A stretch of DNA of 64,000 nucleotides, taken from assembly GCA_963767115.1 (NCBI GenBank), contig CAVYCR010000001.1, forward strand, positions 66,430 through 130,429. The letters are read 5' to 3'. The first letter of the stretch is position 1. Each line of letters starts with the position of its first letter. Source of the stretch: Candidatus Kaiserbacteria bacterium. Lineage in GTDB: Bacteria; Patescibacteriota; Minisyncoccia; Phycocordibacterales; UBA2100. Under the pieces are notes generated by a model, which was not told the origin of the DNA, made no database searches, and worked only from the letters and a program-made list of their open reading frames with translations. This document shows positions 11,201 to 42,695 of the stretch, one piece after another. The translations under genes were made by a program, and so were the position numbers.

Positions 11201-14200
11201 TGGCCGCTATTGGATCCGGAAGCGACGTACTGCGGCTGGTCGCCGTTGGTGCTCTGCGTCAGGTTGTTGCTGTTGCCGGATTGGTCATAGAAGGTGGTGA
11301 CATAGCAGGTGGTCGAAGCGCAGAAAGATGCTGCCGTCGTCGTATCAAAATTACCGTTGGCGAGGAAGCCGATGTTGTCAGTCGTGTTGTCGGAAGCGCG
11401 GCGCAGCTGTACCGCATTGCCAGCGTAGGAACTGCTCAGCTTACGGAAGGAATATGCAGCAGTGGCGCCCGTCCAGCTATCGAGCGGTGCGACATATCCC
11501 AAACTGCCGCCGGAGGATGCCGTCGTAAAGTTCTGGTCGGATGAGGTGGCGATATTCCCCTGACCATCAGCGGATACGACTGCAAAGTGGTAGAGCGTCG
11601 AAGTGGCGAGGCCCGCGAGCGATATCACATGCGAGGTGACAAGCGAAGTAGACGAGGACACTGAGCCGTACGAGGTGGTTGTGCCGTAGACGACCTTTGA
11701 TGATGCGGGGTTGTTGGTCGTCCATGTGATGCTGGCATTCGTCTGGCTGGGGCTTCCGGAAGATATGGAGGAAATGACCGGGGCGCTGTTCTCGACATTG
11801 ACTGTGATTGAGGAGGTCGCGTAATTGCCTGAGGTGTCGACAGCAACCGCGGAAAGAGTATGCGAGCCGTCAGAGACGCCGGTGGAATTCCAGGTCGTCG
11901 AGTACGGAGAACTACTATCGGCCGCACCAATATTGGTGCCGTCGACCTTGAATTGCACACTCGCGACCGCCACGTTGTCTGACGATGTTGCCGAGAGGGT
12001 GACCGAAGAACCGGAGACACTCGCACCGCTTGACGGAGCAGTTAGGGACACGGTGGGTGGGATGGTATCGCCGCCGGCAGTGCTCGGCCATGTAGGCTGT
12101 GAACTCACGAGCCCCGAGTACTTGCCCGCGGTGGTGCTGATCATCTCGTTGCCGACCTGATACACAATGTCGGATGGATTGGCAACGCCCTTGTAGGGAA
12201 TCCACGGGACATCTCCAGTGTAAACACCGTTTTTGAGCGAAAGCGTCGATGGGGAGGAACTGAATATATTGCCGCTTTGATTGCATTGTTCGGTAAGCGT
12301 GCCGCCAACTGGACCGAGGTAGATCTGCTCGGAGCTTGAACTGCCGTTGTAATAGAGTTCATACTCGATGGCGTAGGTAGTACTCGTCGAGATATCGATA
12401 ACCGAGCCGCAGTCAGTACCATTAATGAAGGCCCGCATGGTCGGTTGACCGGCGCTGGTGCGGTCCATGCAGTCGATCCCGCCGCCATAATAGAGCTGGC
12501 CGACAATGCACCATTCGCCACCCTGCGAGACCATGTCGGGAATACTTTTGAATTTGAACTCGTAAAAGATACTCAGGTGCGTCCCTGGTGAATATGATGT
12601 CGCATCGAGTATTTCGCTTCTTGGGTGCTGCGTAATGCCGACATCGGAATCACCTCCGTTCACCACGAATTGCCACAGAGTCGGACAGTTCGTCCCAGCG
12701 GTACAGCCTGAAGTGTTGAGATTGGTCGCATAGGCTTCGCTCGGTCCTTCGGAGTGGATATAGCCGCCCGTTTGCGGCTGCCAGGTAATACCATTAGCAT
12801 CGGTCACTTGATAGTCGCCCAAAGCGGACGCGAAGCTGCCAGCAGATCCGCCCTCACCACCCGGATACGGCGGCAATAATTCCGGGCGCAGCGTATATCC
12901 GTCGGTCGTGCTCTGGTTCGTCGCAACTGTCGCGATCGGCGTAATGCCGTACTGCGAGTCGAGCCAGCCGTCGACGGTCGTACGATTGGCAGCCGTCTGG
13001 TTGACCATCGCCATTTGATGGAAGCAATTGTTGGACGTATTTTCAGAACCATTCGTGTTGCTGAAGAGCGTCGTTCCGACATTGGTCGAATAGGTGACGT
13101 TTGAACCGGACTGCGCAGCCGAAAGTTGCGTGGTGTCGTAGATAAGCTCTTCCGTGTAAGAGTCGACATCCCATACGGCCCAGCGTCCGCGCATGTATTG
13201 ATCGAGGTAACCGACTGTGCCTCCTGCCACGCCGGCGTTTTTCACCATGACCGGATCGCTTGCGGTACCGTCGATGTCTGCAGGCGAGAGCGAGAAGGCC
13301 CAGTACGCGCTTGAATCGAAGGTGTTGCTCGCGGGCCCCGCGACGATCCACGGACCACCGATGACGGAATTGGTGAGCTCGAACGTATCGCCGGTCTCAT
13401 TGAGTTGATTATTGAAGTTCTGGAGCAAGGAAAGGCTCGTACTTCCGCCAGTTGCCGTACCAGCGTATTGCTCCCACCACAGTGCGCTTGGATGGGTCAC
13501 GTCTTCCACACCGGGCTGTCCCGGGTTCCAGACACCGCCGCTCGAAGTCGAGAATCCCTGGAAGACCGAAGCGACGCCACTCTCTGCAATGTTCGTAATG
13601 TTGTGATTGCTCGTAGAGACGTTGCCGGTAATAGTGAAATACGGAAGATTTGGCTGCCAGCCGTTCCAGTCGAGCGTGCCCGGGTATGCGACGGCGAAGA
13701 GTTCAACCTTAGAGGTCGACTGGCTTGCGGAATAGGCATTGCTCATCGTGGAGTTTGGCTGCGCACAGACTTCCAAGAGACCATCGGCTCCTTCGGCGAT
13801 CTGAGGCATTTTTGCGAGCGTGTTCTGATTCCAGTCGTCCTCATGTCCTTCTACGGCACCAACGGTATCGTAGAGGGTCTTCACGTAACAGTACGTTCCC
13901 GAGCAGAATGAATTGAATTGGCTCACGCTTGCCGCGTGGGTGCTCGGGTCGAAGCCAATCGTCGTCGTCGCGTTGTCACTCGTGCGCTCGATGACAGCGA
14001 AGTTACCATTGTACGAGGACGCTGGTGAATACGCGCTCCAGCCGTCGGTCCATCCTTCGGACGGGTACTGATCAATTATGCCATTGTAGGTAACTCCCCC
14101 ACTCGCAGCCGTCGTAAACGTCTGATCAGACGACGTCGCCGTCGTCCCCGTCGCATCTGCAGAAACGACCGCGAAGTGGTACGTGGTATTGGCGGTGAGT

Positions 14201-17200
14201 CCGGTAAGTGAAATCGAATGTGAAGTCAGCAGCGTTGCTGAAGATGAGGCAGAACCATAGCTTGTCGTGGTGCCATAGACGACCTGTGAGTTGGCACTCT
14301 TGTCGGTCGTCCAAGTGATCGTGGCAGCGGTCGTCGTCGGCGTGCCCGAAGAGATTGACGAGATGACCGGAGCTGTGTCTGTCGCCGTGGTAGTCGTAAA
14401 CGTCTGGTCGCTCGACGTCGAGGTATTGCCCAGACTGTCAGCCGAAACGACCGCGAAGTGATACGTGGTGCCTGACGAGAGGCTGGTGAGCGAGATCGAG
14501 TGGCTCGTCACAAGTACCGCACTCGAGGAGGCGGAGCCATATGAAGACGTGAGTCCGTAGACGACCTTGGAGTTTGACGAGGTGTTGGTCGTCCAGGTGA
14601 TGGTCGAGGTGGCGGTCGCGGTTGATGAGGCGATCGACGAGATGACCGGCCCGGCGTTGGAGACGGTGAATGATATGACGGTCGAGGTCGCGTAGTTGTT
14701 GGAGGTGTCGCGGGCCACGGCAAAGGCACTGTGAGAACCGCTCGAGGTGGCCGTGGTATTGAACGTCGTACCGTACGGAGCACTCGTGTCCTCGCTTCCC
14801 TGCTTCATACCATCGACGTAGAAGGTGACGCCAGCAACGGCGACGTTGTCGGAAGCGGTGGCGGCAAGGGTCATCGTGCTTGACGTGGCTTCGCTCGATA
14901 CTGGTGAAGTCATCGTAACCGATGGAGGCGTCACGTCAGGTGTCGCGGTCGTCGTAAAGGTCTGGTCAGACGACGTCGCCGTATTCCCCTGCCCGTCAGA
15001 GGAGACCACGGCAAAGTGATAGACCGTTGAAGCAGTGAGTCCGGTAAGCGAGATTGAGTGACTGGTTGTAAATACTGCTGACGAAGAAGCAGAACCATAC
15101 GAAGATGTCGTGCCATACACCACCTTGGAAGTGGCATTCTCATCAGTCGTCCACGTGACGGTCGCGGTGGTCTGCGCAGTCGATGAAGCGATTGCAGAGA
15201 GCACCGGCGGCGTGTTGTCGTCGGTCACGGTGATCGCGGTGGAGGTGGCGTAGTTGTTGGAGGTGTCGCGGGCAACAGCAATGATCGTCTTCGATCCGCT
15301 TGAGGTTGCTGTCGAGTCCCAGGTGATGGAGTACGGTGATGAGGTGTCCTCGCTTCCCTGCTTGATACCGTTGACGTAGAAGGTGACGCCGGCAACGGCG
15401 ACGTTGTCAGAGGCGTTGGCTGAGATGGTGACGGAAGTTCCTGAGACGGTGGCGCCGTTTGAAGGTGCGGAGAGTGCAACGACAGGCGGAGTGATGTCAG
15501 CAGTCGTGAAGGTCTGGTCTGAGGAGGTGGAGACATTGCCAACGCTGTCGGTCGAGACGACCGCGTAGTGGTAGGTGGTGGCGGAGGTGAGGCTGGTGAG
15601 TGATATGGAGTGACTGGTAACGAATGATGCGCTTGATGAGGCGGAGCCGTAGCTTGCTGTCGTGCCGTACACCACCTTGGAGGTCGCGTTCTCGTTGGTG
15701 GTCCAAGTGATGGTTGCGCTGGTGCCTGCGGGAGTTCCTGCTGAGATGGATGAATTGACCGGGGGCGTGTTGTCGACGGTAACGCTCTCGCTCGTCGTTG
15801 CGTAGTTGCCCGAGGTGTCTTCAGCCACCGCGTAGAGCGTGTGCGTGCCGTCAGAGACACCGGTTGAATTCCACGTCATGGCATATGGTGAGGAGGTATC
15901 AGCGGCACCGATGTTCGTGCCGTCAACTTTGAATTGGACTTGAGCAACCGCGACGTTGTCAGAGGCGTTCGCGGTGAGCGAGACGGCGGAGGTGCCGACG
16001 GTAGCGCCTGATGCCGGGGCGGTGAGCGTAACGGAAGGTGGGGTGGTGTCCGGAGTCGAGCTTGAGGTAAAGGTCTGATCACTGGAGACGGAGAGCTTGC
16101 CCGCACCATTGGTGGAGCGGACGCGGTAGTGGTAGGTAGTGGCTGACGTGAGACCGGTCAAGACGACCGAGTGGCTCGTGACGAGCGAGGAATTGATCGT
16201 GGTGGTGGAGCCATATGCGCTCGTGAGTCCGTAGTTCACTTGTGAGTCAGCGGTTTGGTTGGTGGTCCAGTTGATCGTGGCGCTCGAGAGACCGGGCGTG
16301 CCTGAGGAGATCGAGGAGAGGACCGGGGCTGCGTTCTCGACGGTGACGGTGATTGACGAGGTTGCGTAGTTGCCTGAAGAATCCTGCGCGAGTGCTACGA
16401 TCGTGTGCGTACCGTCAGAAACGCCGGTTGAATCCCAGGTGATGGAGTACGGGGATGAAGTGTCTGCCGCACCGATGTTGTTGCCATCAACTCTGAATTG
16501 GACTGACGCAACCGCAACATTGTCAGTAGCAGCTGCCGTGAGTGTAACGGCTGATCCTGAGACTGCGGCACCTGAAGACGGTGCGGTGAGTGATACCGAT
16601 GGTGGCGTGAGATCAGCGGTTGTCGTTGCAACTGCAGGGATGGAAGCGCTCGAGACATTGCTCGAGGTATCGACGGCGGTGAGGGTGTAGGTGTAAGTGG
16701 TGTTGGGAGTAAGTCCGGTGTCGTTGAACGTGATGCCGGTCGGAGATGCGATGAGGACGCTGTTGCGGAAGAGCTGGTAGTTCTGCACGGCGACGTTGTC
16801 GGTTGCAGCAGTCCACGAGAGATCGATCTCGGTTGAGGAGGCGACGGATGCGATGAGGCCGGTTGGGGTCGAGGGTGGTGTCGTGTCGGTAGATGGACTG
16901 CCTCCACCACCCCCTCCTCCGCCACCTCCACCTCCACCTCCACCTCCGCCACTGTAGACCGGAGCGGAGACGGTCGTGAAGATCAAATCAGTTGATGTTG
17001 CCGCGTCACCTTGTATGTCATGCGACACGAGTTGGAAGTGGTAGGTTGTTCCTGCAATGAGGTTGCTGAGCGCAAGTGTGTGAGTGGTTGCAATGATGCT
17101 TGAGGTGGCGACGGATCCGTAACTCGTCGTGAGGCCGTAGTTGATGGTTGAATCTGATGATACGGGAGTAGTCCAAGTGATCGTGGCGCTGGTGGTGGTG

Positions 17201-17919
17201 GTCGAGACGTTGACGCTCGATATGATGAAGGCTGACGAGGGCGTGGAGACGGGGCCAGCGGGAGTGGAAGGCGTTGATGATCCTCCTGTTTCTTGGGTTT
17301 GTTGCGCGAGACTATTGAGGAGTGCACGCGTCTTGTTACCAACTGTGCCGTATCCGGTAGTAGTGGGTGTACCGGAAGAGACGATGCCGTGGGCTTTCTG
17401 AAGCGCTTTGACTGCTGCTTCGGTCAGGGGTCCGTAGAAGCCGGTTGGTGCTGATGCTGCGAGGAGTCCCTGGGCTTTGAGGATCTCTTGAGCGCAGGTG
17501 ACGTTCGCTCCGGTTGATCCGGGAGCGATGTTTGCAGTGATGGTGCAGAAAGTGGCGGAGGTGGCTGGTGTTGGGATTGGAGTCGTCTTGTGCGCAGCGA
17601 TGAGGGCCTTGAGTTCGGCTTCGAGGGTGGTGATGAGGGCTTCGAGAGTGGTGATTTCGGTTGCTTCGGAGGAAGTGGGGACGGTCGTGGTCGTAATGAC
17701 ACTAGTATTTATTGGTGAGGAGGTTACTGGGGTAGTTGCACTTACTCCCGGAAGAGAGATGAGCTTTTCAAGCGACGGGAGTGGAGGGAGTGCTACCGGT
17801 GTTACCGAGGTGAGGTTGAGTGCGGTTATCGCTACAGGGTAGAGAGCGAGCGCACCAAACACCGCTAATCCAAAGACACGCAACAATGAGGTCTTCGTGA
17901 GACCCTTCCCGTACTTCAC
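8266..17919 (-). CDS. Giant secreted/cell-surface multidomain protein (3217 aa): N-terminal anchor, PG-binding-like segment, Ig-like and FN3-like repeats, two polysaccharide-lyase/concanavalin-like regions, C-terminal lectin-like domain
   Basis: Single uninterrupted ORF. N-terminal hydrophobic segment LLRVFGLAVFGALALYPVAITAL. PG_binding-like CAQEILKAQGLL...GPLTEAAVKALQKAHG. Eight modules of the type ATITWTT-x-S(K/Q)VVYG-TSYGS...TTYH(F/Y)AVVS, and six modules of the type VSGS-VT...ATDNVAVA-VQFKVDG-NIGAADTSSPYS-TW-STGVSDG-HT. Two canonical FN3 domains (IDLSWTAATDNVAVQNYQLFRN and INLSWASSTDNVAVAYYNIYRN). Two regions with HPRSEIL/GAERSEL signatures as in concanavalin-fold polysaccharide lyases. 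Confidence 0.9.
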   Translation of the reverse strand: MKYGKGLTKTSLLRVFGLAVFGALALYPVAITALNLTSVTPVALPPLPSLEKLISLPGVSATTPVTSSPINTSVITTTTVPTSSEATEITTLEALITTLEAELKALIAAHKTTPIPTPATSATFCTITANIAPGSTGANVTCAQEILKAQGLLAASAPTGFYGPLTEAAVKALQKAHGIVSSGTPTTTGYGTVGNKTRALLNSLAQQTQETGGSSTPSTPAGPVSTPSSAFIISSVNVSTTTTSATITWTTPVSSDSTINYGLTTSYGSVATSSIIATTHTLALSNLIAGTTYHFQLVSHDIQGDAATSTDLIFTTVSAPVYSGGGGGGGGGGGGGGGGGSPSTDTTPPSTPTGLIASVASSTEIDLSWTAATDNVAVQNYQLFRNSVLIASPTGITFNDTGLTPNTTYTYTLTAVDTSSNVSSASIPAVATTTADLTPPSVSLTAPSSGAAVSGSAVTLTAAATDNVAVASVQFRVDGNNIGAADTSSPYSITWDSTGVSDGTHTIVALAQDSSGNYATSSITVTVENAAPVLSSISSGTPGLSSATINWTTNQTADSQVNYGLTSAYGSTTTINSSLVTSHSVVLTGLTSATTYHYRVRSTNGAGKLSVSSDQTFTSSSTPDTTPPSVTLTAPASGATVGTSAVSLTANASDNVAVAQVQFKVDGTNIGAADTSSPYAMTWNSTGVSDGTHTLYAVAEDTSGNYATTSESVTVDNTPPVNSSISAGTPAGTSATITWTTNENATSKVVYGTTASYGSASSSASFVTSHSISLTSLTSATTYHYAVVSTDSVGNVSTSSDQTFTTADITPPVVALSAPSNGATVSGTSVTISANASDNVAVAGVTFYVNGIKQGSEDTSSPYSITWDSTATSSGSKTIIAVARDTSNNYATSTAITVTDDNTPPVLSAIASSTAQTTATVTWTTDENATSKVVYGTTSSYGSASSSAVFTTSHSISLTGLTASTVYHFAVVSSDGQGNTATSSDQTFTTTATPDVTPPSVTMTSPVSSEATSSTMTLAATASDNVAVAGVTFYVDGMKQGSEDTSAPYGTTFNTTATSSGSHSAFAVARDTSNNYATSTVISFTVSNAGPVISSIASSTATATSTITWTTNTSSNSKVVYGLTSSYGSASSSAVLVTSHSISLTSLSSGTTYHFAVVSADSLGNTSTSSDQTFTTTTATDTAPVISSISSGTPTTTAATITWTTDKSANSQVVYGTTTSYGSASSSATLLTSHSISLTGLTANTTYHFAVVSADATGTTATSSDQTFTTAASGGVTYNGIIDQYPSEGWTDGWSAYSPASSYNGNFAVIERTSDNATTTIGFDPSTHAASVSQFNSFCSGTYCYVKTLYDTVGAVEGHEDDWNQNTLAKMPQIAEGADGLLEVCAQPNSTMSNAYSASQSTSKVELFAVAYPGTLDWNGWQPNLPYFTITGNVSTSNHNITNIAESGVASVFQGFSTSSGGVWNPGQPGVEDVTHPSALWWEQYAGTATGGSTSLSLLQNFNNQLNETGDTFELTNSVIGGPWIVAGPASNTFDSSAYWAFSLSPADIDGTASDPVMVKNAGVAGGTVGYLDQYMRGRWAVWDVDSYTEELIYDTTQLSAAQSGSNVTYSTNVGTTLFSNTNGSENTSNNCFHQMAMVNQTAANRTTVDGWLDSQYGITPIATVATNQSTTDGYTLRPELLPPYPGGEGGSAGSFASALGDYQVTDANGITWQPQTGGYIHSEGPSEAYATNLNTSGCTAGTNCPTLWQFVVNGGDSDVGITQHPRSEILDATSYSPGTHLSIFYEFKFKSIPDMVSQGGEWCIVGQLYYGGGIDCMDRTSAGQPTMRAFINGTDCGSVIDISTSTTYAIEYELYYNGSSSSEQIYLGPVGGTLTEQCNQSGNIFSSSPSTLSLKNGVYTGDVPWIPYKGVANPSDIVYQVGNEMISTTAGKYSGLVSSQPTWPSTAGGDTIPPTVSLTAPSSGASVSGSSVTLSATSSDNVAVASVQFKVDGTNIGAADSSSPYSTTWNSTGVSDGSHTLSAVAVDTSGNYATSSITVNVENSAPVISSISSGSPSQTNASITWTTNNPASSKVVYGTTTSYGSVSSSTSLVTSHVISLAGLATSTLYHFAVVSADGQGNIATSSDQNFTTASSGGSLGYVAPLDSWTGATAAYSFRKLSSSYAGNAVQLRRASDNTTDNIGFLANGNFDTTTAASFCASTTCYVTTFYDQSGNSNNLTQSTNGDQPQYVASGSNSGQPLAQWCTTCGMKAADNAAYKTSAVDAFVVAKIGKYSATESNGDFWVIGYPHTSTSDWTDVDWGLIGSAGEADSLQNQVYVNGSGYQNNTSNPEDFGQIFRNELYQYDVNSSDQSIHAAGQTIFANGGGATVTYPNATGLYVGMDATGGSNMGNGDIAEIILYPAKQTARDTISANEDSYWGITVPSTAQTTSDGFDWNAIYYGDFGGVGPYANTTETVNGVQYFTESAWDSYSMWHATNVSTTTGALGDMYRFEVHPWDIDNTSGAERSELDGAANTAWPGSDVVQISYSVMVEPGALVTNASWNTMGQYHYGIGGYPPASVAFDLTPTDHWEIDEDGASNPSAIYTSPSAITRGQWYHMFIEQEVGTTTNSSAYLKVWINGTQVVNVSGTTGTLFPNSNASGNAGAGYWKVGIYRGYPGDISVNEAVRYANVQVVNKAVTDLTSLISAPHADPTVSGPAVSLTAPSSGATVSGSAVTVSASASDSIGTISQVQFEVDGSNIGAADTSSPYSVTWNSTGVSDGTHTLYAVAKDNSGLYATSSETVTVQNNPPVITSINASSIATSTATVTWNTNTAASSKVVYGTTTAYGSASSSATLLTAHSISLTGLTPTTLYHYAVVSADSFGNTATSSDTTFTTATPDTTPPSSPSSLTGTPAFNDINLSWASSTDNVAVAYYNIYRNSSKVASTTLIHYDDTGLTASTSYSYVVTAVDTSGNESSNSNTFATSTLSFGGGCTQSASFLARVTVDTTHQNAYKNLICALVSDGVWSQLDIFYVFATQNSATALTNLTNGTYSATLVGAPTFTTDTGFNNSVFDARYIDLGWAATNAVAMTSTASSIGGWSTGSILQGAIASTTNAQFNLSGNQDFGDTNVYGGLNAAANNGVTITGGATGAGWYTIDRNGAQSATLTVYKNGSSIGTGTQGFDDTLNSNHFQSTLAHGIAAVYTGGHLTPTQQANFYSLIHTYLNTINPTSFP
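16900..16950 (-). repeat. Simple-sequence tract (GGN)x17 encoding 17 consecutive glycines inside the giant gene
   Basis: Minus strand reads ggc gga ggt gga ggt gga ggt gga ggt ggc gga gga ggg ggt ggt gga ggc, between ...APVYS and SPSTDTT.... Confidence 0.95.
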
Positions 17920-23501: not shown

Positions 23502-24857
23502 TTATGCGTGGATCAGCGTCCGGATATGATCGAGTTCTTGTTCGAGTGCGTTGTTTCTTTTGACTTCTTCTTTTATTTTCTCGCATGAGTGGATGACAGT
23601 CGTATGGTCACGACCACCGAGCTTCTCCCCGATCGAAGGATACGAGACGTTGAATTCTTCGCGCAGGATATACATGATGATTTGTCGCGGTTTCACCACC
23701 TCCTTCTTACGCGTCTTTTCGTAGATGCTCTTCTCGGCAATATCATAGTATTGCGCGATACGTCGCACGACCTCGTCGACCGAGACGCCCTTGTTTGGCT
23801 TTATATTGTGCTTGATCAGCATTTTACATCGGAGAGCGAGATCGATCTTGCCCTTGAGTTGTGATTTGCAGACGATCATGTTGAGTACCCCCTCAAGCTC
23901 GCGGATATTGCCGCGCACCGACTCGGCGATGAATTGCACGATGTCTTCAGGAATCGAAAAACCGTGTTTCTCGAGCTTCGCTTGGATGATCGCAGTACGC
24001 GATTCGACATCAGGTTCGGGGATCTCCGCGATCATGCCGCCCGAGAAGCGGCCCTTGATACGATCTTCGAAGCCCGGTAGAAGCATCGGGTGCTTATCAG
24101 AGGAGAAAACGATTTGTTTGTTGTTGTCGCGCAGCGCATTGAAGAGATGGAAGAGCTCTTCCTGCGTCTTCTCGGTGTTGGCGATAAATTGCACGTCGTC
24201 CATGATGAGGACGTCGTACTGGCGATATTGATTTTTGAAATTATTGGCGTTACCAGCGCGTACCGAGTTGATGTAATCCACTGCAAACTTTTCACTGGTG
24301 ACGTACAAGACCTTTTTGTTGGTGTGGCTTTTCTTGAAGTAATTCCCGATCGCTTGGATGAGGTGAGTCTTCCCATGGCCGGTCGACCCGTAGATGAAAA
24401 GCGGGTTGTATGTGGCGCCAGGATGATCTATGACGGCCTTCGCAGCAGCGTGTGCGAGCTGGTTGAAGGGACCGACGACAAAAGTATCGAAGGTGTAGCG
24501 TGGGTTGAGGTTGTCGCGCTTGTCGATATAGAGCGACTGGAGGTCGAAGGAAGCATTTTCATTCTCCTGAACACGCGGGCTCCGGCGCTCGGGTGATACG
24601 ACGGGCGCGCGGTGGATGCTATAATCGACAGCTCTAATGGTGTTGTCGAGATTGCGAAGTGTCGAGAGAATAAGCTTGTGGTGCTTGTCCATCAGCCATT
24701 CCTTCACTATTTTCGAGGGAACGGCGACTTGTACCGATCCCCCTGCGACATCCCTGTTTACGATATCTGTATTTCGAAACCAGGTGCGGAAGCTTGTTTC
24801 TGAAGTGCCGAGTTCGATTTGAACCAGCGCGTTTTGCCACAATTCTCTGTTAGTCAT
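23502..24857 (-). CDS. dnaA: Chromosomal replication initiator protein DnaA
   Basis: ORF 23502..24872. AAA+ Walker A IYGSTGHGKTHL, Walker B VLIMDDVQF, C-terminal DNA-binding signature GGRDHTTVIHS. The ATG at 24857 is preferred because a TATAAT hexamer (24876..24871, minus strand) overlaps the alternative ATG at 24872. Confidence 0.93.
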   Translation of the reverse strand: MTNRELWQNALVQIELGTSETSFRTWFRNTDIVNRDVAGGSVQVAVPSKIVKEWLMDKHHKLILSTLRNLDNTIRAVDYSIHRAPVVSPERRSPRVQENENASFDLQSLYIDKRDNLNPRYTFDTFVVGPFNQLAHAAAKAVIDHPGATYNPLFIYGSTGHGKTHLIQAIGNYFKKSHTNKKVLYVTSEKFAVDYINSVRAGNANNFKNQYRQYDVLIMDDVQFIANTEKTQEELFHLFNALRDNNKQIVFSSDKHPMLLPGFEDRIKGRFSGGMIAEIPEPDVESRTAIIQAKLEKHGFSIPEDIVQFIAESVRGNIRELEGVLNMIVCKSQLKGKIDLALRCKMLIKHNIKPNKGVSVDEVVRRIAQYYDIAEKSIYEKTRKKEVVKPRQIIMYILREEFNVSYPSIGEKLGGRDHTTVIHSCEKIKEEVKRNNALEQELDHIRTLIHA

Positions 24858-24941
24858 ACGAAGTGCGATCATTATACGCGCGTATGGTTTGCAACCAAGT
24901 ATCTGTTTTCAGCCACGACCGATTTTCTGGTGTGCATAACC

Positions 24942-24950
24942 TGTGGATAA
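24942..24950. promoter_or_regulatory. Perfect consensus DnaA box (tgtggataa = TTATCCACA on the other strand)
   Basis: Read directly, in the dnaA-rpmH spacer. It ends 13 nt before the first long hairpin arm (24964). Confidence 0.6.
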
Positions 24951-24963
24951 CTAGATAAGTAGT

Positions 24964-25247
24964 GGCAAACGTGCAGGGGAAGCATCTTTTCGAACATACC
25001 GTAAGTACAAAGCTTCTGGTATCTCCCACGAACATACCCTGTGGTAATGAGGCTCCTGCAGGCGAGGTTCGAAAAGGTGCTTCCCCTGCACGTTTGCCGA
25101 TTGCAGATGTTGTGGCACCCCAGAGGGAAATGGGTTGCGGAACATCGCCTGTGGAATCGTAGTACCTTATAAGTACGTTCGTGGGAGGAATACAGTCTCC
25201 GTGCACTCACGGTAGGTTCCGCGACCCATTTCCCTCTGGGGTGCCAC
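24964..25247. repeat. Head-to-head pair of hairpin modules (copy pair A): two 32-bp stems, each enclosing a conserved ~71-nt core
   Basis: 24964-24995 pairs with 25067-25098 and 25112-25143 pairs with 25216-25247. Each stem is 32 bp with a single T/G (G-U on the plus strand) position. The loops are 71 and 72 nt. Loop 2 resembles the reverse complement of loop 1. The cores are homologous to those at 44625-44896. Confidence 0.85.
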
Positions 25248-25261: not shown

Positions 25262-25289
25262 TTGAAAATCAGGATTTTACTGCTATAGT
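25262..25289 (+). promoter_or_regulatory. Sigma-70-like promoter of rpmH (TTGAAA-16 nt-TATAGT) ending 6 nt before the ATG (leaderless-type arrangement)
   Basis: TTGAAA at 25262-25267, TATAGT at 25284-25289, rpmH ATG at 25296. Confidence 0.5.
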
Positions 25290-25792: not shown

Positions 25793-26530
25793 ATGTTTTC
25801 TTGGATCGCGCTGCTTTTCGTGACAGTCATCTATAATCCCCTCTACAACCTGATGGTATGGCTCATTAGTGTTGTGCCGAGCCATGAAGTAGGATTTGCG
25901 GTGCTCGCACTCACTGTCATCGTCAGGATTATACTCATCCCCCTCTCTCGCCGCGCGATCCAGTCGCAGGTCGATATGCGTAAGGTCGCTCCCGAGATCA
26001 CGAAGCTTCGCGACAAGCACAAGGACGACAAACAAGCCGAGAGCAAAGCGATTTTTGAGCTCTATAAAGAGCGGGGGATTCATCCTTTTTCAGGCTTTTT
26101 CCTCACGATCATACAGATCTTTATTGTATATCCGATCTATTGGATTTGTTCGCGCGCGGGACTCCCGAAGATCGATGCAGGGGCGCTGTATTCTTTCGTA
26201 CATGTGCCGAGTGTCGTCAATATGGAATTCCTCAGTCTCATCAATATGTCTGGGCACAGTATCGTGCTTGCGCTCCTTGCAGGTGTGAGCCAATTCACTT
26301 ATACGCGGCTTGCGATGGGTCCGCATGGCGTCAAGACGGCAACGGAAGCATCCTTCTCCGACGATATGGCGCGCAGTATGGATACCCAAGCGCGCTACGT
26401 GCTCCCTGCCATCATCGCGGTCATCGGCTATTCAATCGGCGCGGCGGCGCCCTTGTACTGGACGACCAGCAACACCTTCATGATCGTGCAGGAATATATC
26501 GCCGGGCGGCGCTTCTCGGACAAGGTATAG
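25793..26530 (+). CDS. yidC: Membrane protein insertase YidC (short, Gram-positive/Oxa1-like form)
   Basis: Five predicted TM segments. Conserved RIILIPLSRRAIQSQVDMRKVAPEITKLRDKHKDDKQ...ELYKERGIHPFSG region, in the canonical position after rnpA. Confidence 0.88.
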   Translation: MFSWIALLFVTVIYNPLYNLMVWLISVVPSHEVGFAVLALTVIVRIILIPLSRRAIQSQVDMRKVAPEITKLRDKHKDDKQAESKAIFELYKERGIHPFSGFFLTIIQIFIVYPIYWICSRAGLPKIDAGALYSFVHVPSVVNMEFLSLINMSGHSIVLALLAGVSQFTYTRLAMGPHGVKTATEASFSDDMARSMDTQARYVLPAIIAVIGYSIGAAAPLYWTTSNTFMIVQEYIAGRRFSDKV

Positions 26531-26537: not shown

Positions 26538-26695
26538 GCAGAGGCGTCTTATGCCTTTTGCGAACTGAACGCGATTGCATACGCACCGACTCTCAAAAAA
26601 CATCGAGGCTAAGCCTCGATTTTTTTCTACTGCCGGTACTGTGCCTGGGATGATTTCGCTGCGCGAGGTTCGCAAAAGGCATAAGACGCCTCTGC
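26538..26695. repeat. Long inverted repeat (28-bp perfect stem, 102-nt interior) spanning the yidC-jag spacer
   Basis: 26538-26565 (gcagaggcgtcttatgccttttgcgaac) is the exact reverse complement of 26668-26695. The inner arm end (ttttgcgaac / gttcgcaaaa) is the same as in the hairpin at 44627-44752. Confidence 0.85.
26595..26627 (+). terminator. Rho-independent (bidirectional-type) terminator after yidC
   Basis: aaaaaac ATCGAGGC taa GCCTCGAT ttttttt: an 8-bp stem flanked by an A-run and a T-run. It lies inside the 26538-26695 inverted repeat. Confidence 0.7.
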
Positions 26696-30106: not shown

Positions 30107-30436
30107 TTATTTGTCTTGTTGACTCGCTTCGAAGGATAAGCGGTTTTCTCGGATCATCTTATACACAAAATAGCTCCAACCCGGGAATAATTCGGATACA
30201 GGAAAGAATTTAAAAAGTACGGTAGTTATGAACCTGCCCGGTGCTTTTCGCGCAATACTTACGCCGAGATGGCTGAACCAAATGGCTATAATAAAGCCAA
30301 CGATAGGATCTAAGAGTGAGTCAATTATCCAGCCCAAGCCGAGTACAAATCCTAGTATGAAGCTAAGGAGGTCAGCCACGCCGGCAAATACTCTAAGCAT
30401 CGTCGCACTCCCCGCACTGATTTTACCCTCGTTCAT
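30107..30436 (-). CDS. Small integral membrane protein (109 aa, about 3 TM segments)
   Basis: Hydrophobic segments LRVFAGVADLLSFILGFVLGLGWII and IVGFIIAIWFSHLGV. Its ATG overlaps the stop of the VirB4-like gene (ATGA). Confidence 0.6.
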   Translation of the reverse strand: MNEGKISAGSATMLRVFAGVADLLSFILGFVLGLGWIIDSLLDPIVGFIIAIWFSHLGVSIARKAPGRFITTVLFKFFPVSELFPGWSYFVYKMIRENRLSFEASQQDK

Positions 30437-33112
30437 GCGTTGCCTTGAAGTGCGTTGCTGTTAAGGCCTCCGCCGACGGGTGCAGTATCGGCGCCGGGAG
30501 CTGCAAAGGCCGCGGCCGGTGCAGCGGCAGCCGGTATCGGCGCCGGCCGTTCAGGAGGTGCGAGCTCAGCCGAGGCGATCTCCCCTTCCGGCCCGCCTTC
30601 GTTGACCGCGGCGAGTTCCTGCTTCGCCTTTTTGATCGCAAGGATCTGCGACGGGTCGGAGGTGATGATCTGGTCTTCGGTGTACGAGGCGATGACCTTG
30701 ATGCGCGACGTGCTTCAAGCCCGCGAAGAAGATCCCCTCCCCTACATCGGATTCGAGCAGCAGATATTTTTCCTCGTCGGAGAGTTTGAAGGTCTGCTGC
30801 ACGAGGTCGACCGAGGTCGGCGATTGGCGCAAAAGAGTTGAATCGACGAGTTGGTGATCATCGGGATGCCGTAGGGCGAGTTGAGGAAGTCGGAGACGTC
30901 CTGCGTGATCGTCGAGATGCCGAGGTAGTATTTGCGGCCGCGCTTCGCGATACCGAAGAGGAACGAAGCCGTGTCTTCGGAGCGCATCATCCACCACGCC
31001 TCGTCGATGACGAGCAGGCGCTTGCGCAACTCTTTGCGCACGGGTTCCAGATGTGGTGCGTGATGATGTACATCGCGACCGGCTTGAGGTCGTCTTCCAT
31101 GTCGCGCACCGAGAAGACGACGAGCTTTTTGTTCATGTCGACGTTGGTCGGCCGGTTCATAAAGCCGCGACCACGTGCCTTTGGTGTATTTGCTCAGAGA
31201 CGCTGCACGAGCGATCTCGCTCCCTTCCATGCCGGAGAGCACGAGCTCGAAGTCGGAGAGAAGCGGCGGCTCGACTGAGCGCGAAGTTGGCGTCCGCGCG
31301 TGATGTCTTTGAGCGCGTATGTCTCGGTGATCGCACGGTCGATGATCGCGTCTTCTTCCGGCGTGAGGCCGCCGAGCATGATGCGGAAGAGGCCGACGAG
31401 CGTGATGATGTTGTTGCGCAAGACGTCCGAGGGCGCTTCGTCTTCGCGCGGGATCGGCAAGGTCGAAGGGATTGATGTGGTGCTCGGAGCGAAAGTGAAA
31501 TGTTGAAATAGCGGCCGCCGACCGTTTCGGCGAGATATTCGTATTCGCGTTCAGGGTCGATGACGATGACCTCGGTGTCGAACATGAGGGAGCGCAAGAT
31601 TTCGAGCTTGGTCGTGTAGCGATTTGCCCGCACCGGATTTGGCGAAAGTCACGGAGTTGTAGTTTTCGAGGCTAGAAGCTGATCAAAGAGGATCAGCGAC
31701 GAGTTGTGGCGGTTGATGCCGTAGAGGATGCCACGGTCGGAGGTGAGGTCGAAAGAGATGAACGGGAAGATCGAGGAGAGCGGCGCGGAATTGAGCTTGG
31801 TGTGCACGTCGAGCTCGTCGGTGCCGAGCGGCAGGACCGAGCGGAAGCCTTGTTCTTGTTGGAAAAGTGCCGGGCGGATGTAGACGAGACGGCTTTCGAG
31901 AATGCCGCGGATCTCGGTCTCGATCTTGTCGATCTCTTCGCGCGTAGTTGCCGTAGATCGTGAGGTAGAGGCCCACTTCGAAGATGCGCTCCTGCGCCTG
32001 TTGCAAGGAGTCGCGCAACTGCTCGAGGTCGCGAGTAGGCGGTGTCGAGCATCGGGTCGCGCACCATCCCCTTCTCTTCGCGCGTCGAGATCTGCGACTG
32101 CACCTCGGCGACTTTCTTCTGGAATTTGCGGAGCATCTCGTTGGTGTCCATCGGATGGATGAAGATCGAGATGTCGATCACTTTGTCCATGTTGATGATC
32201 GGCGCGAACCACCCCGTCGTGAGGAAGCGCGGATACGAGATGACGAAGAACGTGCGCGCGATCTTTCTCGCCCAGGTCGAGCTCGCGGGAATCGATCTTG
32301 AGCGCGTGCGGCGCGATCACGTCCTGCAGGTCGAGGACGCCGGTCTGGTAGATCTCCTCCGGCAGAACCGGCAACTCATGTTGAGGCTTTTCGGTCGGAT
32401 CTTTTCTTCTGAAGTAAGTAGTCGAGTAGTGCCATACGTTATTAGTTATTGCTTCAAGCGGCATCGGCTTGCCTTCTTCGCCCGGGTTGAACATCTTGTA
32501 GAGAAGCTCGATCGCTTCTTCGGTGCCGAGCTGTACGGTGCGCACGCCCGTGCGCACGAGGCCTTGCTGCACGATCGAGATGCGCTGTTCAAGCTGGGAG
32601 ACTTGCTCTTCGAAAGTCTTGTTGGCGTTCGTTCGGCTCGGTCTTCTTGTTGCCGAACGGCAGCATTTTGCCGACGCCGCTCTTGCTGATGCGAGACTGA
32701 AGCGAATACGGCACGACGACGAAGAAATTCTTGGTCATGATGTTGGCGGCCTCGGTGAAGCTCTTGATGAACTCGATGTATTCGCGGATCTGCACGCGCA
32801 TGAGGTCGTCGAGCTGCTCCTTGTATTGCGCTTCGAGCGTCGCGATATACGGGCGGATGTCGAGCATGCGCGATTGCACGAAGATCTGACACGGAGAAAT
32901 CAAGCGAGTTGAGGAAATTCTGGAATTGCACGATGAAGGCGGTCTGCTCGTCCTCGCTCTTGAGTGCGAAGTTGATCGATGAGGCGAGGAGGATCGCGCG
33001 CAGGCTGCCGTCTTTGAGGATGACGACGCCGTCACGCACTTCGCGAGACCGGCACGAATTCCTGCGTGGAGCGGCTGTTGGATCGTGGTGTTGATGGACG
33101 TTGGGTAGGCAT
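30433..33112 (-). pseudogene. virB4: VirB4/TraC/PrgJ-type type IV secretion ATPase, reading frame broken at a dozen or more points as sequenced
   Basis: Homologous text hops through minus-strand ORFs 32446..33039, 32589..33035, 31649..32572, 31693..32190, 31683..32018, 31157..31633, 31194..31460, 30742..31242 and 30566..30997. It includes VRDGVVILKDGSLRAILLASSINFALKSEDEQ, Walker A FAKSGAGKS (read by hand at about 31640), EVIVIDPEREYEYL, Walker B LLVIDEAWWMM and RKYYLGISTITQDVSDF. ATG at 33112, TGA at 30433-30435. Confidence 0.85.
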
Positions 33113-37043: not shown

Positions 37044-38764
37044 ATTTGTTCCCACATCTGGAGGGTGGAAGGATTGCCTACGTTGCACCAGCCGGAATTG
37101 GGGTCGGCGGGGTTCCCCGTGTCGGGACTGGTCGTGGTCCAGTTGCTCTGTACTGTCTGCACGAGGTTGGTGCTCGTTTGTTGGATGGTCGTCTGGGCTT
37201 GCTGTATGGAGACCAAGTCGTTGGGTGTCTGCAACTGACCAGTGGAGGTGAGCTGGTCAACATTATCGACGGCCTGGTTTTGCGTATCGACTGAGCTGCT
37301 CTGCGCGTTGTTCTGGATTTGTGTGAGTGTCTGGATGTTTTGCTGCGCAACATTGATCTCTTGGAGAGTCGAAGATGCCGTCGCAGCGATGTTGGTATTG
37401 ATGATTTGCTGCGCGAAGCCGTAGGTCGAGGTCGCGATCGTGAGTGTTACGGTAGACGGGGCTGTCGTCACGGTTTGCGATATCGTTCCGCCGTGGCCGT
37501 TTGAGGTAACAACCGTACTGATGCTCGCAGTACCCGTTTGTACTTCGGTGCATGTTGCGGTCCCGTTACTGTTGTAGCTCAAGGTCCCGGCTTGGCAGAC
37601 GTCTGAAATGATACTGTTCCAACAGCCTGCCTCTTGCCCACGAAGGGTGCCGATCGCGGTTGAAAGGGTATTGGCGATGGAGCTTGCTGTCTGATAATAG
37701 CTTTGTTCGGTCTGAATCGCGCCCGAGAGGATGGAGAGCGCGGCGCCCGCGATGCCTTGCGTGACGCCGGTGTTGGCGAGCGATGTAGCGCTTTGCATGT
37801 ATCCCTGCGAGACACTGGCAAGGCTTTGGTTGGTATATCCCGGCACTGAGGCACCGGTCACTGCGGAAGAGAGGTTGGCCAAGAGCGAAGTCGTCATCTG
37901 ACCGATGTCGTTGGCGTTTTCGGTGAGGCGGAAGCCCGAGGTAATGGCTTGGTTGAGCGTTGCAAAAAGTGTCTGGCTCGGCGTGCTTACGATGATATTA
38001 CCGTACGCGTCGGTACTGCCGCGCGGGTACATACCCTGGCCCCATTGCAGCTGTGTGAGTGCGTTGTTGACGACGTTGGCGGCCACAGCCGTCGCTTGGG
38101 CGTTGGCTTGGTTGTAGGCACCTATCGCGGTGCAGGTCGGGAGCGCGAGATAGCCGAGCGCTGAGAGCGCGGAGTCGGTCGTCTGCCCTTGATAGAGTGC
38201 GGTGAGGTTGCCTGTGTAGGGACATGAGAGTGCAGCAGTCGGGCTGTTGATCGCGGCGTAATTGTTTTGCACGATTGCGGATTTTACGGTGCTTTGGAAT
38301 GCGGCATTCACGTTGTTGGTAATACCATTGCTCACCGCTGCGGCGAGTGCGTTCGAATATTTAGTCTGCATCTCGTTTCCTAGGTTGACGGAATACTGCG
38401 GATTGCCGTTATTGCCCTGTGTGATCTGTCCGGTGATCTGGTTGGTCATCTGGGTAATGGCGCTGTCGCGCAGGCGGTCGATCACTTCGCGCAAGACGCA
38501 CTCGTCGTAAACGAGATATCCGGTGTTGAGCTCTACCACCGCGTCCGACACGGGTACGTACACTCCGTTTGCAGTGAAGGCGCCGACGCTCTTGGCGTAG
38601 GCACCGTTCTGGCTGCAGCCGAGGATGCCGGAGTCTTGGAATTGGTACGCGCTGTTGCCTACGGGCGACTGCACGGCACCAGGAAGGCTGCTCGCTTGCG
38701 CAAAAACGAGCACTGGTGAGAGTGTGATGAGTAGAATACTGAGGAGTAAGGTACGGATTTTCAT
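37031..38764 (-). CDS. Secreted hypothetical protein (577 aa), Gln/Thr/Asn/Ser/Ala-rich
   Basis: Signal peptide MKIRTLLLSILLITLSPVLVFAQ. It has a 4-nt overlap with the upstream gene and a 13-nt overlap with the downstream start. Confidence 0.7.
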   Translation of the reverse strand: MKIRTLLLSILLITLSPVLVFAQASSLPGAVQSPVGNSAYQFQDSGILGCSQNGAYAKSVGAFTANGVYVPVSDAVVELNTGYLVYDECVLREVIDRLRDSAITQMTNQITGQITQGNNGNPQYSVNLGNEMQTKYSNALAAAVSNGITNNVNAAFQSTVKSAIVQNNYAAINSPTAALSCPYTGNLTALYQGQTTDSALSALGYLALPTCTAIGAYNQANAQATAVAANVVNNALTQLQWGQGMYPRGSTDAYGNIIVSTPSQTLFATLNQAITSGFRLTENANDIGQMTTSLLANLSSAVTGASVPGYTNQSLASVSQGYMQSATSLANTGVTQGIAGAALSILSGAIQTEQSYYQTASSIANTLSTAIGTLRGQEAGCWNSIISDVCQAGTLSYNSNGTATCTEVQTGTASISTVVTSNGHGGTISQTVTTAPSTVTLTIATSTYGFAQQIINTNIAATASSTLQEINVAQQNIQTLTQIQNNAQSSSVDTQNQAVDNVDQLTSTGQLQTPNDLVSIQQAQTTIQQTSTNLVQTVQSNWTTTSPDTGNPADPNSGWCNVGNPSTLQMWEQIWST

Positions 38765-39570: not shown

Positions 39571-39594
39571 GGATAAAGTATAGCATCGGGAAAC

Positions 39595-39679
39595 AAGCTT
39601 CTAGCTTCTAGGGGCTAGCTTCTAGGGAAAACAAGACAAAATGCATTTGCTAGAAGCTAGTAGCTAGCCACTAGAAGCT
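39595..39679. repeat. AGCT-rich palindromic spacer motif (copy 1)
   Basis: aagcttctagcttctaggggctagcttctaggg, then a 21-nt A-rich spacer containing aaaatgc, then gctagaagctagtagctagccactagaagct. The right arm overlaps the stop codon of the 39671..40591 gene. Confidence 0.7.
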
Positions 39680-40591
39680 GTTCTGTGTAAACACGAATGC
39701 GCTCCCCGGGTCTGATTGCCCGAATTTCACGTTGTTCACAGCAAAGAGTGTCGACACGTTTGCAAACTGCGTATTGAAAGAGTCTGCAGCCGTGTCATAG
39801 GCATTGATCGCATTGACGAAATCCGTGTCGCTGCCGCCGGTCGTTTGGGAGACCGCGACGAGTGCTTTGCCGACGTTCTCGTAGGCGAGCGCGAGCTGGG
39901 TATTGGCGCCCTGTGCGCTCGAAGGCACAGCACTGATCTCTCCAAGCTTCACACCGACTCCCTCGAGGTCATTGCCGATCTGTGCGACTGCCGCGGCTTT
40001 GGTTGCGTTTTGCCTGTCGTCGACCGAGGCAGAGAGGATTTGGGCTTGGTCGGTGTGGGTGTCGTCGTATTCTTGCAAGTAGGTGCCGGCTGCGTTGCCA
40101 TAATCATAGAGTGCTTTCTGATTTGTTGTCATTGTGGGACCTGAGAGGCTTGATGTGCTGACCGTCTGAGACGGTATGTATGCCCATGGGTCTATCGCGG
40201 TATCTTCCGAAGCTGAAACTCCTGCTGAGGCTTGGGGTTTTGATAATTGAGCGAGCATGTACGCGATCTGGGCATCGGTACCGGCGCTCGGCTGCGGATA
40301 TGACGCATTTGATACGGTCGCGGCCGTAGTGTTCGTTGCTGTTTCAATCGGCACTGTCGGCGTCGCGTACGTCGTCTCAACCGGCAGTGGAGACGATGAT
40401 GTCGTGGGTGCGGGTATGGTCGTAGCGAGCGTCGGCACTACGCCGCTTCCGCCCCATGCCGAAACGGCGCCCGTGTCCGTGCTTGCGGTGCTGCTGTGCT
40501 CATAGACCACGAAGGCGCCGACCAGGAACGCGAGAAGCGCGAGAGCGAGAGCTATCAAAAACGGGTTAGAACGCATACGCTCCATGCGCAT
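39671..40591 (-). CDS. N-terminally anchored hypothetical protein (306 aa), first gene of the T4SS-like cluster
   Basis: TM segment FLIALALALLAFLVGAFVV. The ectodomain is Thr/Ser/Ala-rich and then helical. TATAGT lies just upstream of the clustered ATGs at 40591/40585. Confidence 0.65.
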   Translation of the reverse strand: MRMERMRSNPFLIALALALLAFLVGAFVVYEHSSTASTDTGAVSAWGGSGVVPTLATTIPAPTTSSSPLPVETTYATPTVPIETATNTTAATVSNASYPQPSAGTDAQIAYMLAQLSKPQASAGVSASEDTAIDPWAYIPSQTVSTSSLSGPTMTTNQKALYDYGNAAGTYLQEYDDTHTDQAQILSASVDDRQNATKAAAVAQIGNDLEGVGVKLGEISAVPSSAQGANTQLALAYENVGKALVAVSQTTGGSDTDFVNAINAYDTAADSFNTQFANVSTLFAVNNVKFGQSDPGSAFVFTQNSF

Positions 40592-42598: not shown

Positions 42599-42623
42599 GT
42601 AAGCAGTCTAGCGTGGATTCGCA

Positions 42624-42681
42624 AGCACGGGAACTTTAAAAATCGTTGGGCCCGGAAGAGGGTTTTTAAAGTTCCCGTGCT
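42624..42681. repeat. Hairpin (19-bp perfect stem, 20-nt loop) between pcrA and rsmA
   Basis: 42624-42642 (agcacgggaactttaaaaa) is the exact reverse complement of 42663-42681. There is no U-tract on the minus strand. Confidence 0.75.
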
Positions 42682-42695
42682 AGCACAATTCACTG

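Follow-up and report, generated by a model that had tools for sequence, protein, structure and literature searches.

The closest described analogue of the elements reported here appears to be the stem-loop type of TIGR-Tas guide RNA from bacterial members of the candidate phyla radiation (CPR), although our elements lack its defining geometry. In TIGR-Tas units the stems are 'variable but consistently palindromic' and are conserved only next to the loop, while the tigRNA loops contain two variable spacers of 8-12 nt between box C (CNA) and box D (YG); the hosts include Parcubacteria, other CPR bacteria and phages, and the genome positions of the units are flexible (PMC12045711; bioRxiv 10.64898/2026.09.09.750476). 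A second line of work concerns inverted repeats that evolve in concert. This literature documents that template switching can create, perfect and lengthen inverted-repeat arms (PMC8794818, PMC5941160, PMC8604942, PMC13100816). Here we analyze a stretch of 64 kb (hereafter the window; positions 66,430 to 130,429 of contig CAVYCR010000001.1, assembly GCA_963767115.1) from a Candidatus Kaiserbacteria bacterium. It contains a small family of intergenic hairpin modules, in which a conserved core of about 71 nt is enclosed by long complementary arms; one pair of modules is located next to dnaA and another next to pcrA.

Architecture of the modules

The window represents 64 kb out of a contig whose length is 200 kb or more, and it contains four modules (n = 4 copies). 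Each is composed of an arm of ~32 bp, a conserved core of 70-72 nt and the complementary arm, and the four are arranged as two head-to-head pairs, A and B (Table 1). A preliminary description of this DNA, made from the letters alone, had reported the arm coordinates of pair A together with arm lengths of 32 nt, loops of 71 and 72 nt and a gap of 13 nt; all of these are borne out by the sequence. The second pair, which it had also mentioned, was located at 44624-44755 plus 44765-44899. As proposed, loop 2 of pair A is an inverted copy of loop 1, and the complementarity of ~15 nt between the two loops was confirmed in the 15-nt blocks CTCCCACGAACATAC and GTACGTTCGTGGGAG. The cores of pair B are likewise inverted copies of each other. 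The A1 core, when read on the minus strand (the sense of dnaA), is co-oriented with the A2 and B2 cores on the plus strand.

The arms consist of two parts. The inner ~10 bp (yTTTTSSGAAC / GTTCSSAAAAr) are common to all copies, whereas the outer ~20 bp are unrelated between copies. This agrees with the preliminary description, and the inner motif extends to a fifth hairpin at 26538-26695 (hairpin C). A search for targets of the arms, as if these were guides, gave no support for such a role: none of the arms recurs elsewhere in the window, where the best match is 12 nt, which we estimate to be within chance, and the outer 20-mers of A1 and A2, the two to which the scan of IMG/VR was limited, were not found there. 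The uniqueness of the arms refers to the window and the compared loci rather than to the whole genome. Each stem of pair A has one single non-Watson-Crick position, at which a T (left) is opposite a G (right) on the plus strand. The preliminary description had located these positions correctly and had read them as G-U pairs of a plus-strand RNA; this argument holds for the plus strand only and is based on two data points. When the A1 arm is read on the strand of the neighboring gene, the mismatch is a C/A clash.

After alignment of the four modules in a common orientation 97.7% of the arm cells pair, and both sides have changed between copies at 24 of the 32 arm pairs. None of 500 shuffles reached the observed arm pairing and covariation, and none of the slid registers came near the observed pairing. 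When ≤2 mismatches were allowed, the core block GTAYGTTCGTGGGAG was counted four times in the window versus an expectation of 0.26. The modules fold with individual z-scores of -8.5 to -11.6. The window contains nine inverted repeats with a perfect run of ≥16 nt and a spacer of 20-250 nt; 100 first-order Markov simulations yielded none. The stems, which add up to ~125 bp, contain two G-T positions. These data confirm that the conserved hairpin modules are real and far beyond chance.

The four cores are 65-83% identical. A1 and B1 form the closest pair (83.5%), with 66 of 79 positions identical if GAAC and GTTC are counted in; this fits the value of 57 out of 71 that had been noted before. The core contains invariant linear blocks, between which lie two variable segments of 12-14 nt. 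A 9-mer, GTAYGTTCG, has a central position in all four cores. It is repeated exactly at the 3' junction of A1 and B1, and an inverted copy with one mismatch is present at the 5' junction of B1; six of the seven exact matches to GKAYGTTCG in the 64 kb fall within modules. This pattern looks more like a set of repeated protein-binding sites than like a folded RNA. The core has no robust consensus fold (the folding term in RNAalifold was only -14 kcal/mol), and in the regions scanned there was no promoter-like site in the core and no terminator-like site in the modules. A coding function of the core was ruled out by a 1-nt indel between A1 and B1. A likeness of ACGTTCGT to a Bacteroides invertase site was not confirmed in the literature and was dropped.

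Table 1. Positions of the hairpin modules and of other features. Coordinates refer to the window, or to the named contig where one is given.
Feature	Position	Strand	Details
Pair A	24964-25247		A1 + A2, 13-nt gap between them
A1 outer (dnaA-side) arm	24964-24995		32 nt; inner 10 nt = CTTTTCGAAC; 97% complementary to 25067-25098
A1 core	24996-25066	-	71 nt; from alignment; nhmmer E=5e-24
A1 inner arm	25067-25098		pairs with 24964-24995
Inter-module spacer of pair A	25099-25111		13 nt; unlike the spacer of pair B
A2 inner arm	25112-25143		32 nt; 97% complementary to 25216-25247
A2 core	25144-25215	+	72 nt; rpmH sense; module covariance-model score 143 bits
A2 outer (rpmH-side) arm	25216-25247		ends 15 nt upstream of the -35 of the rpmH promoter
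B1	44623-44756	-	arms 44624-44656 / 44723-44755; 30-bp perfect run
B2	44765-44899	+	arms 44765-44796 / 44868-44899; 29 bp perfect
Hairpin C	26538-26695		28-bp perfect arms; inner motif CCTTTTGCGAAC / GTTCGCAAAAGG; 102-nt loop; yidC-jag spacer
DnaA-box cluster beside A1	24931-24959	-	read from the sequence
DnaA box TGTGGATAA	24942-24950	-	perfect
DnaA box TGTGCATAA	24931-24939		one mismatch
Weaker DnaA box CTAGATAAG	in cluster 24931-24959		after TGTGCATAA
rpmH promoter	25262-25289	+	TTGAAA, 16-nt spacer, TATAGT; TG preceding the -10; 10 of 12 consensus positions
Unrelated MITE sites	L058:6476-6569, L077:7613-7707, L078:1255-1338, L082:9021-9115, L083:362-450		IMG/VR contigs; see text

Retention and turnover in related genomes

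Pair A was also found in an independent assembly. The Logan contig L044 (ERR11630394) comes from a strain which is 99.5% identical and has 27 substitutions relative to the window over 5.8 kb. Its copies of pair A and hairpin C do not differ from those of the window at any position, and the orientation of the cores is the same. The concern of the preliminary description that the palindromes could be chimeras was not substantiated, since L044 has pair A base for base. Most of the differences between the two strains are clustered: 24 of the 27 substitutions and both indels are in dnaA at 23643-24348, while the flanking 5 kb are almost identical. This suggests that this part of dnaA is a tract of recombination between strains.

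More diverged relatives are represented by L050 and L057 (both SRR31245132), whose DnaA or PcrA is ~90% identical to that of the window, and by L055 (88%). Four-fold degenerate sites are only 56-58% identical between these genomes (43% diverged). The contig L057 starts with GTTCGCAAAG (GTTCGCAAAGTATCGCATCCGCAGCGCCTA at fuller length), and the orthologous stretch of the window is the B1 arm GTTCGCAAAACCTTTTCCGCTCGGCCGT. The inner arm (GTTCGCAAA) is identical at 9 of 10 positions, and the same number was obtained for the extended -10 element of the promoter (ATATATTCTC vs GTATATTCTC); the outer arm, on the other hand, agrees with B1 at only 6 of 20 positions (30%). In this comparison at pcrA, GTTC and the start codon are 53 vs 54 nt apart. 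At dnaA the outer arm of A1 and that of L050 are identical at ~11 of 22 positions in a hand alignment. L050 breaks ~35 nt upstream of the DnaA boxes and L055 breaks in a similar manner; their starts, CCGATAAG and GGCAAAAT, resemble the inner arm CGAAAAG.

We conclude from these comparisons that both loci were probably already occupied in the common ancestor of the window genome and the 90% relative. The inner arm and the flanks appear to be constrained, whereas the outer arms seem to change at the neutral rate or faster and yet stay complementary. Because both loci are occupied at the same position in a diverged relative, the modules appear to be old and inherited and not recent insertions. 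In the comparison aimed at empty sites, both loci were occupied in the 99.5% strain and presumably also in the 90% relative; those at 84-87% had other hairpins or none, and no clean empty site could be aligned. Two ideas from the preliminary description do not agree with this picture. A foldback mobile element is not supported, given the presence of modules at the same two loci, at 53 vs 54 nt from the start codon, in a relative with 43% divergence. For an insertion into the apex of a pre-existing palindrome we found no evidence in the compared loci; between relatives the arms are not conserved while the flanks are.

Relatives with a DnaA identity of 84-87% either have another, single hairpin at the dnaA-rpmH site (L051, L045/L046) or none (L048). 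L045 and L046 differ by C-G/U-G switches on one strand of this different hairpin, which folds better on the dnaA-sense strand. The yidC-jag spacer is 25 nt in L051 vs ~200 nt in the window.

The ends of the Logan contigs have a regularity of their own. L050, L055 and L057 (at their starts) and L054 (at its end) stop 30 nt into hairpin arms; in L054 the last stretch, of exactly 30 nt, belongs to an arm of a further hairpin at 58401-58518 (window position 58489). We take Logan contigs to be the product of a k=31 assembly, which would explain why they end 30 nt into arms; on this reading the arm in the respective relative should be perfect over 31 nt or more. Since contigs end at the arms, the dnaA-rpmH and pcrA upstream regions must be systematically missing from such assemblies, and for CPR metagenomes this means that these hairpins break short-read assemblies beside dnaA and pcrA.

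Genomic setting and interpretation

Homologues of its DnaA assign the organism to Candidatus Kaiserbacteria, in the Paceibacterota of the CPR. Pair A is located in a spacer of 423 nt that separates dnaA, on the minus strand, from rpmH-rnpA-yidC-jag on the plus strand, and pair B is between pcrA (minus strand) and a gene for a LysM/M23 peptidase. Both pairs are therefore between divergent genes, and both are upstream of predicted promoters. B1 is directly upstream of the extended -10 element of pcrA (TGGTATATT; GTG start near 44603), while B2 faces the peptidase gene at 45147. The orientation of the module relative to the adjacent gene is the same in all four cases, namely dnaA, rpmH, pcrA and the M23 peptidase gene. 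Within the scanned regions, promoter- and terminator-like sites were limited to the promoter of rpmH and to others that lie outside the modules. The two pairs are isolated and 19.6 kb apart. The GC skew shows no switch at 25 kb and was uninformative for the placement of the origin. A Pfam scan of ~50 proteins of the window (for ten, additionally with E up to 1) yielded housekeeping genes and a cluster similar to type IV secretion. The same scan returned no transposase, recombinase, reverse transcriptase, Cas or Nop/Tas protein, and no integrase, invertase, HUH or Y1 transposase.

Hairpin C shares the inner arm motif with the modules but has a different loop, which contains a terminator-like hairpin between an A run and a T run. 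In a comparison of A1 with hairpin C, 2 of 300 shuffles reached a score as high as the real pair. Except for these inner arms of hairpin C, the other hairpins exhibited no significant homology between their loops and the core. The genome has several other inverted repeats that are long and perfect but have unrelated loops, one of which contains a terminator-like hairpin; this points to a genome-wide tendency on the DNA level.

The interpretation which we favor, with a probability of roughly 0.4, is that the module is a cis-acting hairpin element upstream of promoters, in which a helix without sequence requirement clamps the conserved 71-nt loop and in which copying from arm to arm keeps the arms matched. 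The anatomy, the covariation, the orthologous retention, the rate of arm divergence and the absence from known families are what the data show. The modules would then constitute an old, vertically inherited and lineage-restricted family of hairpin-forming intergenic elements. Their constrained unit would be ~90 nt long and include the 71-nt core and a terminal inverted repeat of ~10 bp (yTTTTSSGAAC ... GTTCSSAAAAr); in each arm the outer ~20 bp would carry no sequence information and drift at about the neutral rate. The arms may be kept complementary by template switching or gene conversion between the close inverted repeats, and selection for a long helix probably adds to this. The small number of G-T positions together with the complete turnover of the outer arms makes arm-to-arm copying on the DNA level the simplest account; a helix under compensatory selection alone should change more slowly than neutral and should exhibit many G-U or mismatch intermediates. 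The preliminary description had stated that the pattern is not what slow divergence of paralogs gives. This was too strong, because slow divergence plus arm-to-arm copying gives this pattern. The helix could present the core as a single-stranded loop of ~71 nt in RNA or in unwound DNA, and the module could serve in the divergent promoter regions as a protein-binding platform or as a transcription barrier. A function in cis is suggested because each module is just upstream of a promoter and has a fixed orientation to the neighboring gene. The retention in a streamlined genome, the arms of 28-33 bp and the invariant core blocks argue that the module is useful and not junk.

Several points weigh against this cis-acting interpretation. 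The proposed function is derived from position, and the conservation of the core across species is extrapolated only from the conserved inner arm because the contigs of the relative break at the arms. Only four copies are known, all from one species-level lineage, and template switching as the process that maintains the arms is adopted by analogy from the literature. The tight range of arm lengths (28-33 bp) and the long-term perfection of the arms suggest selection on the helix, which is equally compatible with an RNA. Furthermore, both mismatches of pair A are G-U on the plus strand, and L045 and L046 have C-G vs U-G at a different hairpin; this pattern is a weak hint of a strand-specific constraint, possibly on an RNA.

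These last points lead to the least unlikely of the alternatives, namely a structured non-coding RNA (ncRNA). Its closing helix would be free in sequence but under selection in the RNA, and RNase III trimming of a longer transcript might release a core of ~75-90 nt; alternatively, it could be a guide or scaffold RNA of an undescribed protein, similar to tigRNA. The strong arm covariation and the two variable segments of 12-14 nt between the conserved core blocks are consistent with an ncRNA, as are the plus-strand G-U mismatches of pair A, the C-G to U-G changes on one strand of the L045/L046 hairpin, which folds better in the dnaA sense, and the TIGR papers' description of CPR units with variable palindromic stems that are conserved only next to the loop. 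However, no Rfam family matched even when E was relaxed to 10, the core lacks an internal fold that is conserved, and in the regions scanned there is no promoter- or terminator-like site within or next to the modules, which lie between divergent promoters. The A1 mismatch becomes C/A on the strand of the neighboring gene, and the terminator-like hairpin in the loop of hairpin C would halt a transcript before the second arm. The arms also diverge at the neutral rate or above, whereas selected RNA stems should be slower and contain more G-U. Finally, the window encodes no Nop/Tas protein and the modules do not have the TIGRFinder-type geometry. Of the ncRNA with sequence-free stems put forward in the preliminary description, the free stems are supported (24/32 pairs covary, and the outer arms differ in the relative); a structured ncRNA as such is a possible but less probable reading. 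A related and clearly more speculative idea, to which we assign little probability, is an undescribed CPR system of which the modules would be the RNA or single-stranded DNA component; a protein would recognize the 71-nt loop and the inner stem, and the locus-specific duplex of ~20 bp would be programmable. By analogy this would be a dual-strand guide with a logic like that of TIGR-Tas but with guide and scaffold swapped; in another version the hairpin would serve to load proteins of replication, both at oriC and at one further site.

A small non-autonomous mobile element is improbable, although we rate it above the programmable duplex. Here the core with its ~10-bp terminal inverted repeats would enter palindromes or would invert and duplicate ~20 bp of its flank. 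The inner arm ends common to all copies do resemble short terminal inverted repeats, the sites are intergenic and 'safe', and both the different or missing hairpin in the dnaA-rpmH spacer of the 84-87% relatives and the short yidC-jag spacer of L051 (25 vs ~200 nt) could reflect mobility. Against this, a relative with 43% divergence at four-fold sites seems to have both loci occupied, with no change of position, and cores with 65-83% identity imply that there are no recent copies. There are no direct target-site duplications and no transposase in the window, and no further copy was detected in the 157 kb of compared sequence, GTDB, the JGI metagenomes, IMG/VR or plasmid and phage records. To our knowledge no transposition chemistry yields inverted target duplications of 20 bp. 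Quite doubtful, slightly more so than the programmable system, is a switch similar to an inverton, in which recombination or template switching between the arms flips the core and alters the expression of the adjacent gene. With ~30 bp the arms come close to the shortest length that homologous recombination requires, and inversion itself would homogenize the arms. All four cores are co-oriented relative to the adjacent gene, and inversion of a spacer is documented for template switching (PMC8604942). Yet the core contains no promoter-like site and the window no invertase, an invertible segment of 71 bp would be very short, the neighbors are housekeeping genes and two independent assemblies have one and the same orientation. 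It is very unlikely that the hairpins stabilize DNA opened by DnaA and expose 71-nt loops for the loading of helicase or primase. In the spacer between rpmH and dnaA, pair A borders on the DnaA-box cluster, relatives also have long hairpins beside DnaA boxes, and the head-to-head layout provides one sense core per strand; but pair B is 19.6 kb away beside pcrA, where no DnaA-box cluster was noted, there is no GC-skew switch at 25 kb, no AT-rich unwinding element was identified, and the hairpins of the relatives at this site have unrelated loops. The possibility that the palindromes are chimeras from assembly or amplification is effectively excluded. Such palindromes are known from multiple-displacement amplification and long-read sequencing, and several genes of the window look fragmented; however, L044 as an independent short-read contig of another strain has pair A and hairpin C in identical form, other short-read contigs end at exactly 30 nt of arm as expected for real inverted repeats, and the four copies share a diverged core.

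If the cis-acting interpretation is correct, the modules provide a natural case of concerted arm evolution, in which helices of ~30 bp stay perfect during turnover at the neutral rate beside a constrained loop; models in which template switching creates and maintains hairpins would then be testable in a minimal CPR genome. If the core is bound by a protein or processed from an RNA, the modules would represent a new class of cis-element or ncRNA at promoters of genes that are central to replication and translation, in a CPR lineage from which almost no regulatory elements are known.

Additional observations concern the surroundings of the modules. Throughout the genus the region upstream of dnaA contains DnaA boxes, two or three in number (TTATCCACA and variants), and after them the conserved promoter CGCGTATAAT. 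The long hairpins are always beyond the DnaA boxes in the window and in the dnaA-upstream regions of L050, L051, L046, L048, L055 and L056. At pcrA, the public protein P0121 (782 aa, from the 200,265-nt contig; window 42696-45044, minus strand) is PcrA with an N-terminal extension of 147 aa. This extension corresponds to a read-through of pair B; the PcrA of the 90% relative starts with VDHLKDL and has 634 aa. The extension is an annotation artefact due to the palindromes, and hairpins thus create false N-terminal extensions (147 of the 782 aa of P0121 are translated palindrome). Three genes, for a T2SSE ATPase, a TraG-like ATPase and polynucleotide phosphorylase, appear to be split into short open reading frames (ORFs; 4198-4689, 30107-33035 and 52085-53905), which are either pseudogenes or the result of indel errors in the assembly. 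A single ORF of 3217 aa is at 8266-17919 on the minus strand.

The window has more long inverted repeats. The hairpin at 58401-58518 is perfect over 34-37 bp, and its loop consists of a short GC hairpin and a 10-bp AU-rich hairpin. A hairpin in the dnaA-rpmH spacer of L051 (1909-2001) has a similar architecture without significant sequence similarity, and the two may represent a second type of 'clamped' module. Other intergenic repeats with arms of 22-35 nt are at 5274-5418, 42621-42684, 57300-57445 and 39577-39684. Those at 42621 and 57300 are no more than ~12 nt from a stop codon, which suggests that they are unusual long-stem terminators without U tracts. The repeats at 39.6 kb and 57.3 kb are composed of short repeats of the CTAGAAGCTAG and AGCTATCA type.

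Known families and described systems

The database searches for the core and the Rfam searches that the preliminary description had called for found no described family, in agreement with its statement that the elements are not a tRNA, an Rfam family, an attC site or a REP. Neither the window nor any of four related loci had an Rfam match at the gathering score. With E relaxed to 10 a single match fell on a module, SSRC8_2, a generic long hairpin with 21 bits vs the 72 required, and pair B gave nothing. ARAGORN predicted no tRNA or tmRNA. A scan for the core pattern in the GTDB species genomes gave 18 matches, about the number estimated for chance, in unrelated high-GC taxa; none of them combines the third block with arms. 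The corresponding scans gave 25 matches in IMG/VR, all due to chance or coding sequence, and one chance match (L053) in the JGI metagenomes. A BLAST search of pair A against plasmid and phage records yielded nothing meaningful. With nhmmer and the covariance model R1 only the four modules and the two copies in L044 were detected in 157 kb of compared sequence. Within the databases searched, and as far as these tools reach, the family seems to be confined to one species-level lineage.

A scan of IMG/VR for the inner-arm motif found only an unrelated classical miniature inverted-repeat transposable element (MITE; Table 1), in part on contigs labeled as metagenome-assembled genomes of giant viruses. 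This MITE has a conserved terminal inverted repeat of ~35 bp (CAGAAAACCGTAGGTTTTCCGAACCTTTCCC) and an AT-rich variable interior.

Like TIGR-Tas units, the modules have stems which are variable palindromes and conserved only near the loop. Membership was examined with a re-implementation of the TIGRFinder rule (bioRxiv 10.64898/2026.09.09.750476). This rule asks for two 14-nt intervals (box C CNA, a 9-nt spacer and box D YG), which are not more than 15 nt apart and which are directly flanked by a palindromic stem. It finds no unit in any of the modules; its matches in the window (26425-26461, 38086-38114 and 40438-40473) are all inside predicted ORFs. The modules also differ in their loop, which has 71 nt and is conserved, while the tigRNA loop has up to 43 nt and variable spacers. 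They do not form a tandem array, and Pfam found no Tas protein with a Nop domain in the window.

MITEs and foldback elements such as the Correia elements are small, non-coding, intergenic and multi-copy like the modules, with terminal inverted repeats that can form hairpins; the inner ~10 bp of the module arms behave like such a short terminal repeat. MITEs, however, conserve the terminal repeats and vary inside, as in the IMG/VR family, whereas the modules do the reverse. The preliminary description had called them the opposite of a MITE, and with a conserved interior and locus-specific outer arms this was correct. The flanks of the modules are inverted complements and not direct target-site duplications, and both loci are orthologously retained whereas MITEs are polymorphic for presence and absence. 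REP/REPIN sequences also form inverted doublets and long intergenic hairpins, but REPINs have conserved arms, a variable loop, tens to hundreds of copies and a RAYT gene, none of which was seen here. The integron attC sites share recognition by structure and hairpins of ~60-140 nt; they have their R boxes (RYYYAAC / GTTRRRY) on the outside, extrahelical bases and a variable center and occur with cassettes and an integrase. In the modules GAAC/GTTC is on the loop side, the stems are perfect, and the window contains neither cassettes nor an integrase. The RNase III processing stems of 16S and 23S rRNA resemble the modules in that a conserved interior is inside a long sequence-free helix; the interior there is a known structured RNA in operons, while for the modules neither a known RNA nor signs of an operon or of an internal fold were found.

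In their evolutionary behavior the modules agree with inverted repeats that evolve in concert. As in these, the arms are matched within a locus and diverge between lineages at about the neutral rate, the boundaries are sharp and the genome has an excess of long perfect inverted repeats. The cases in the template-switch literature (PMC8794818, PMC5941160, PMC8604942, PMC13100816) are mostly short inverted repeats or existing RNA stems, and it describes no family of paralogs that combines head-to-head pairing and arms of ~30 bp with a spacer of 71 nt that is conserved. On the evidence of their sequence the modules would best be filed among the hairpin-forming intergenic repeats, outside any named family.

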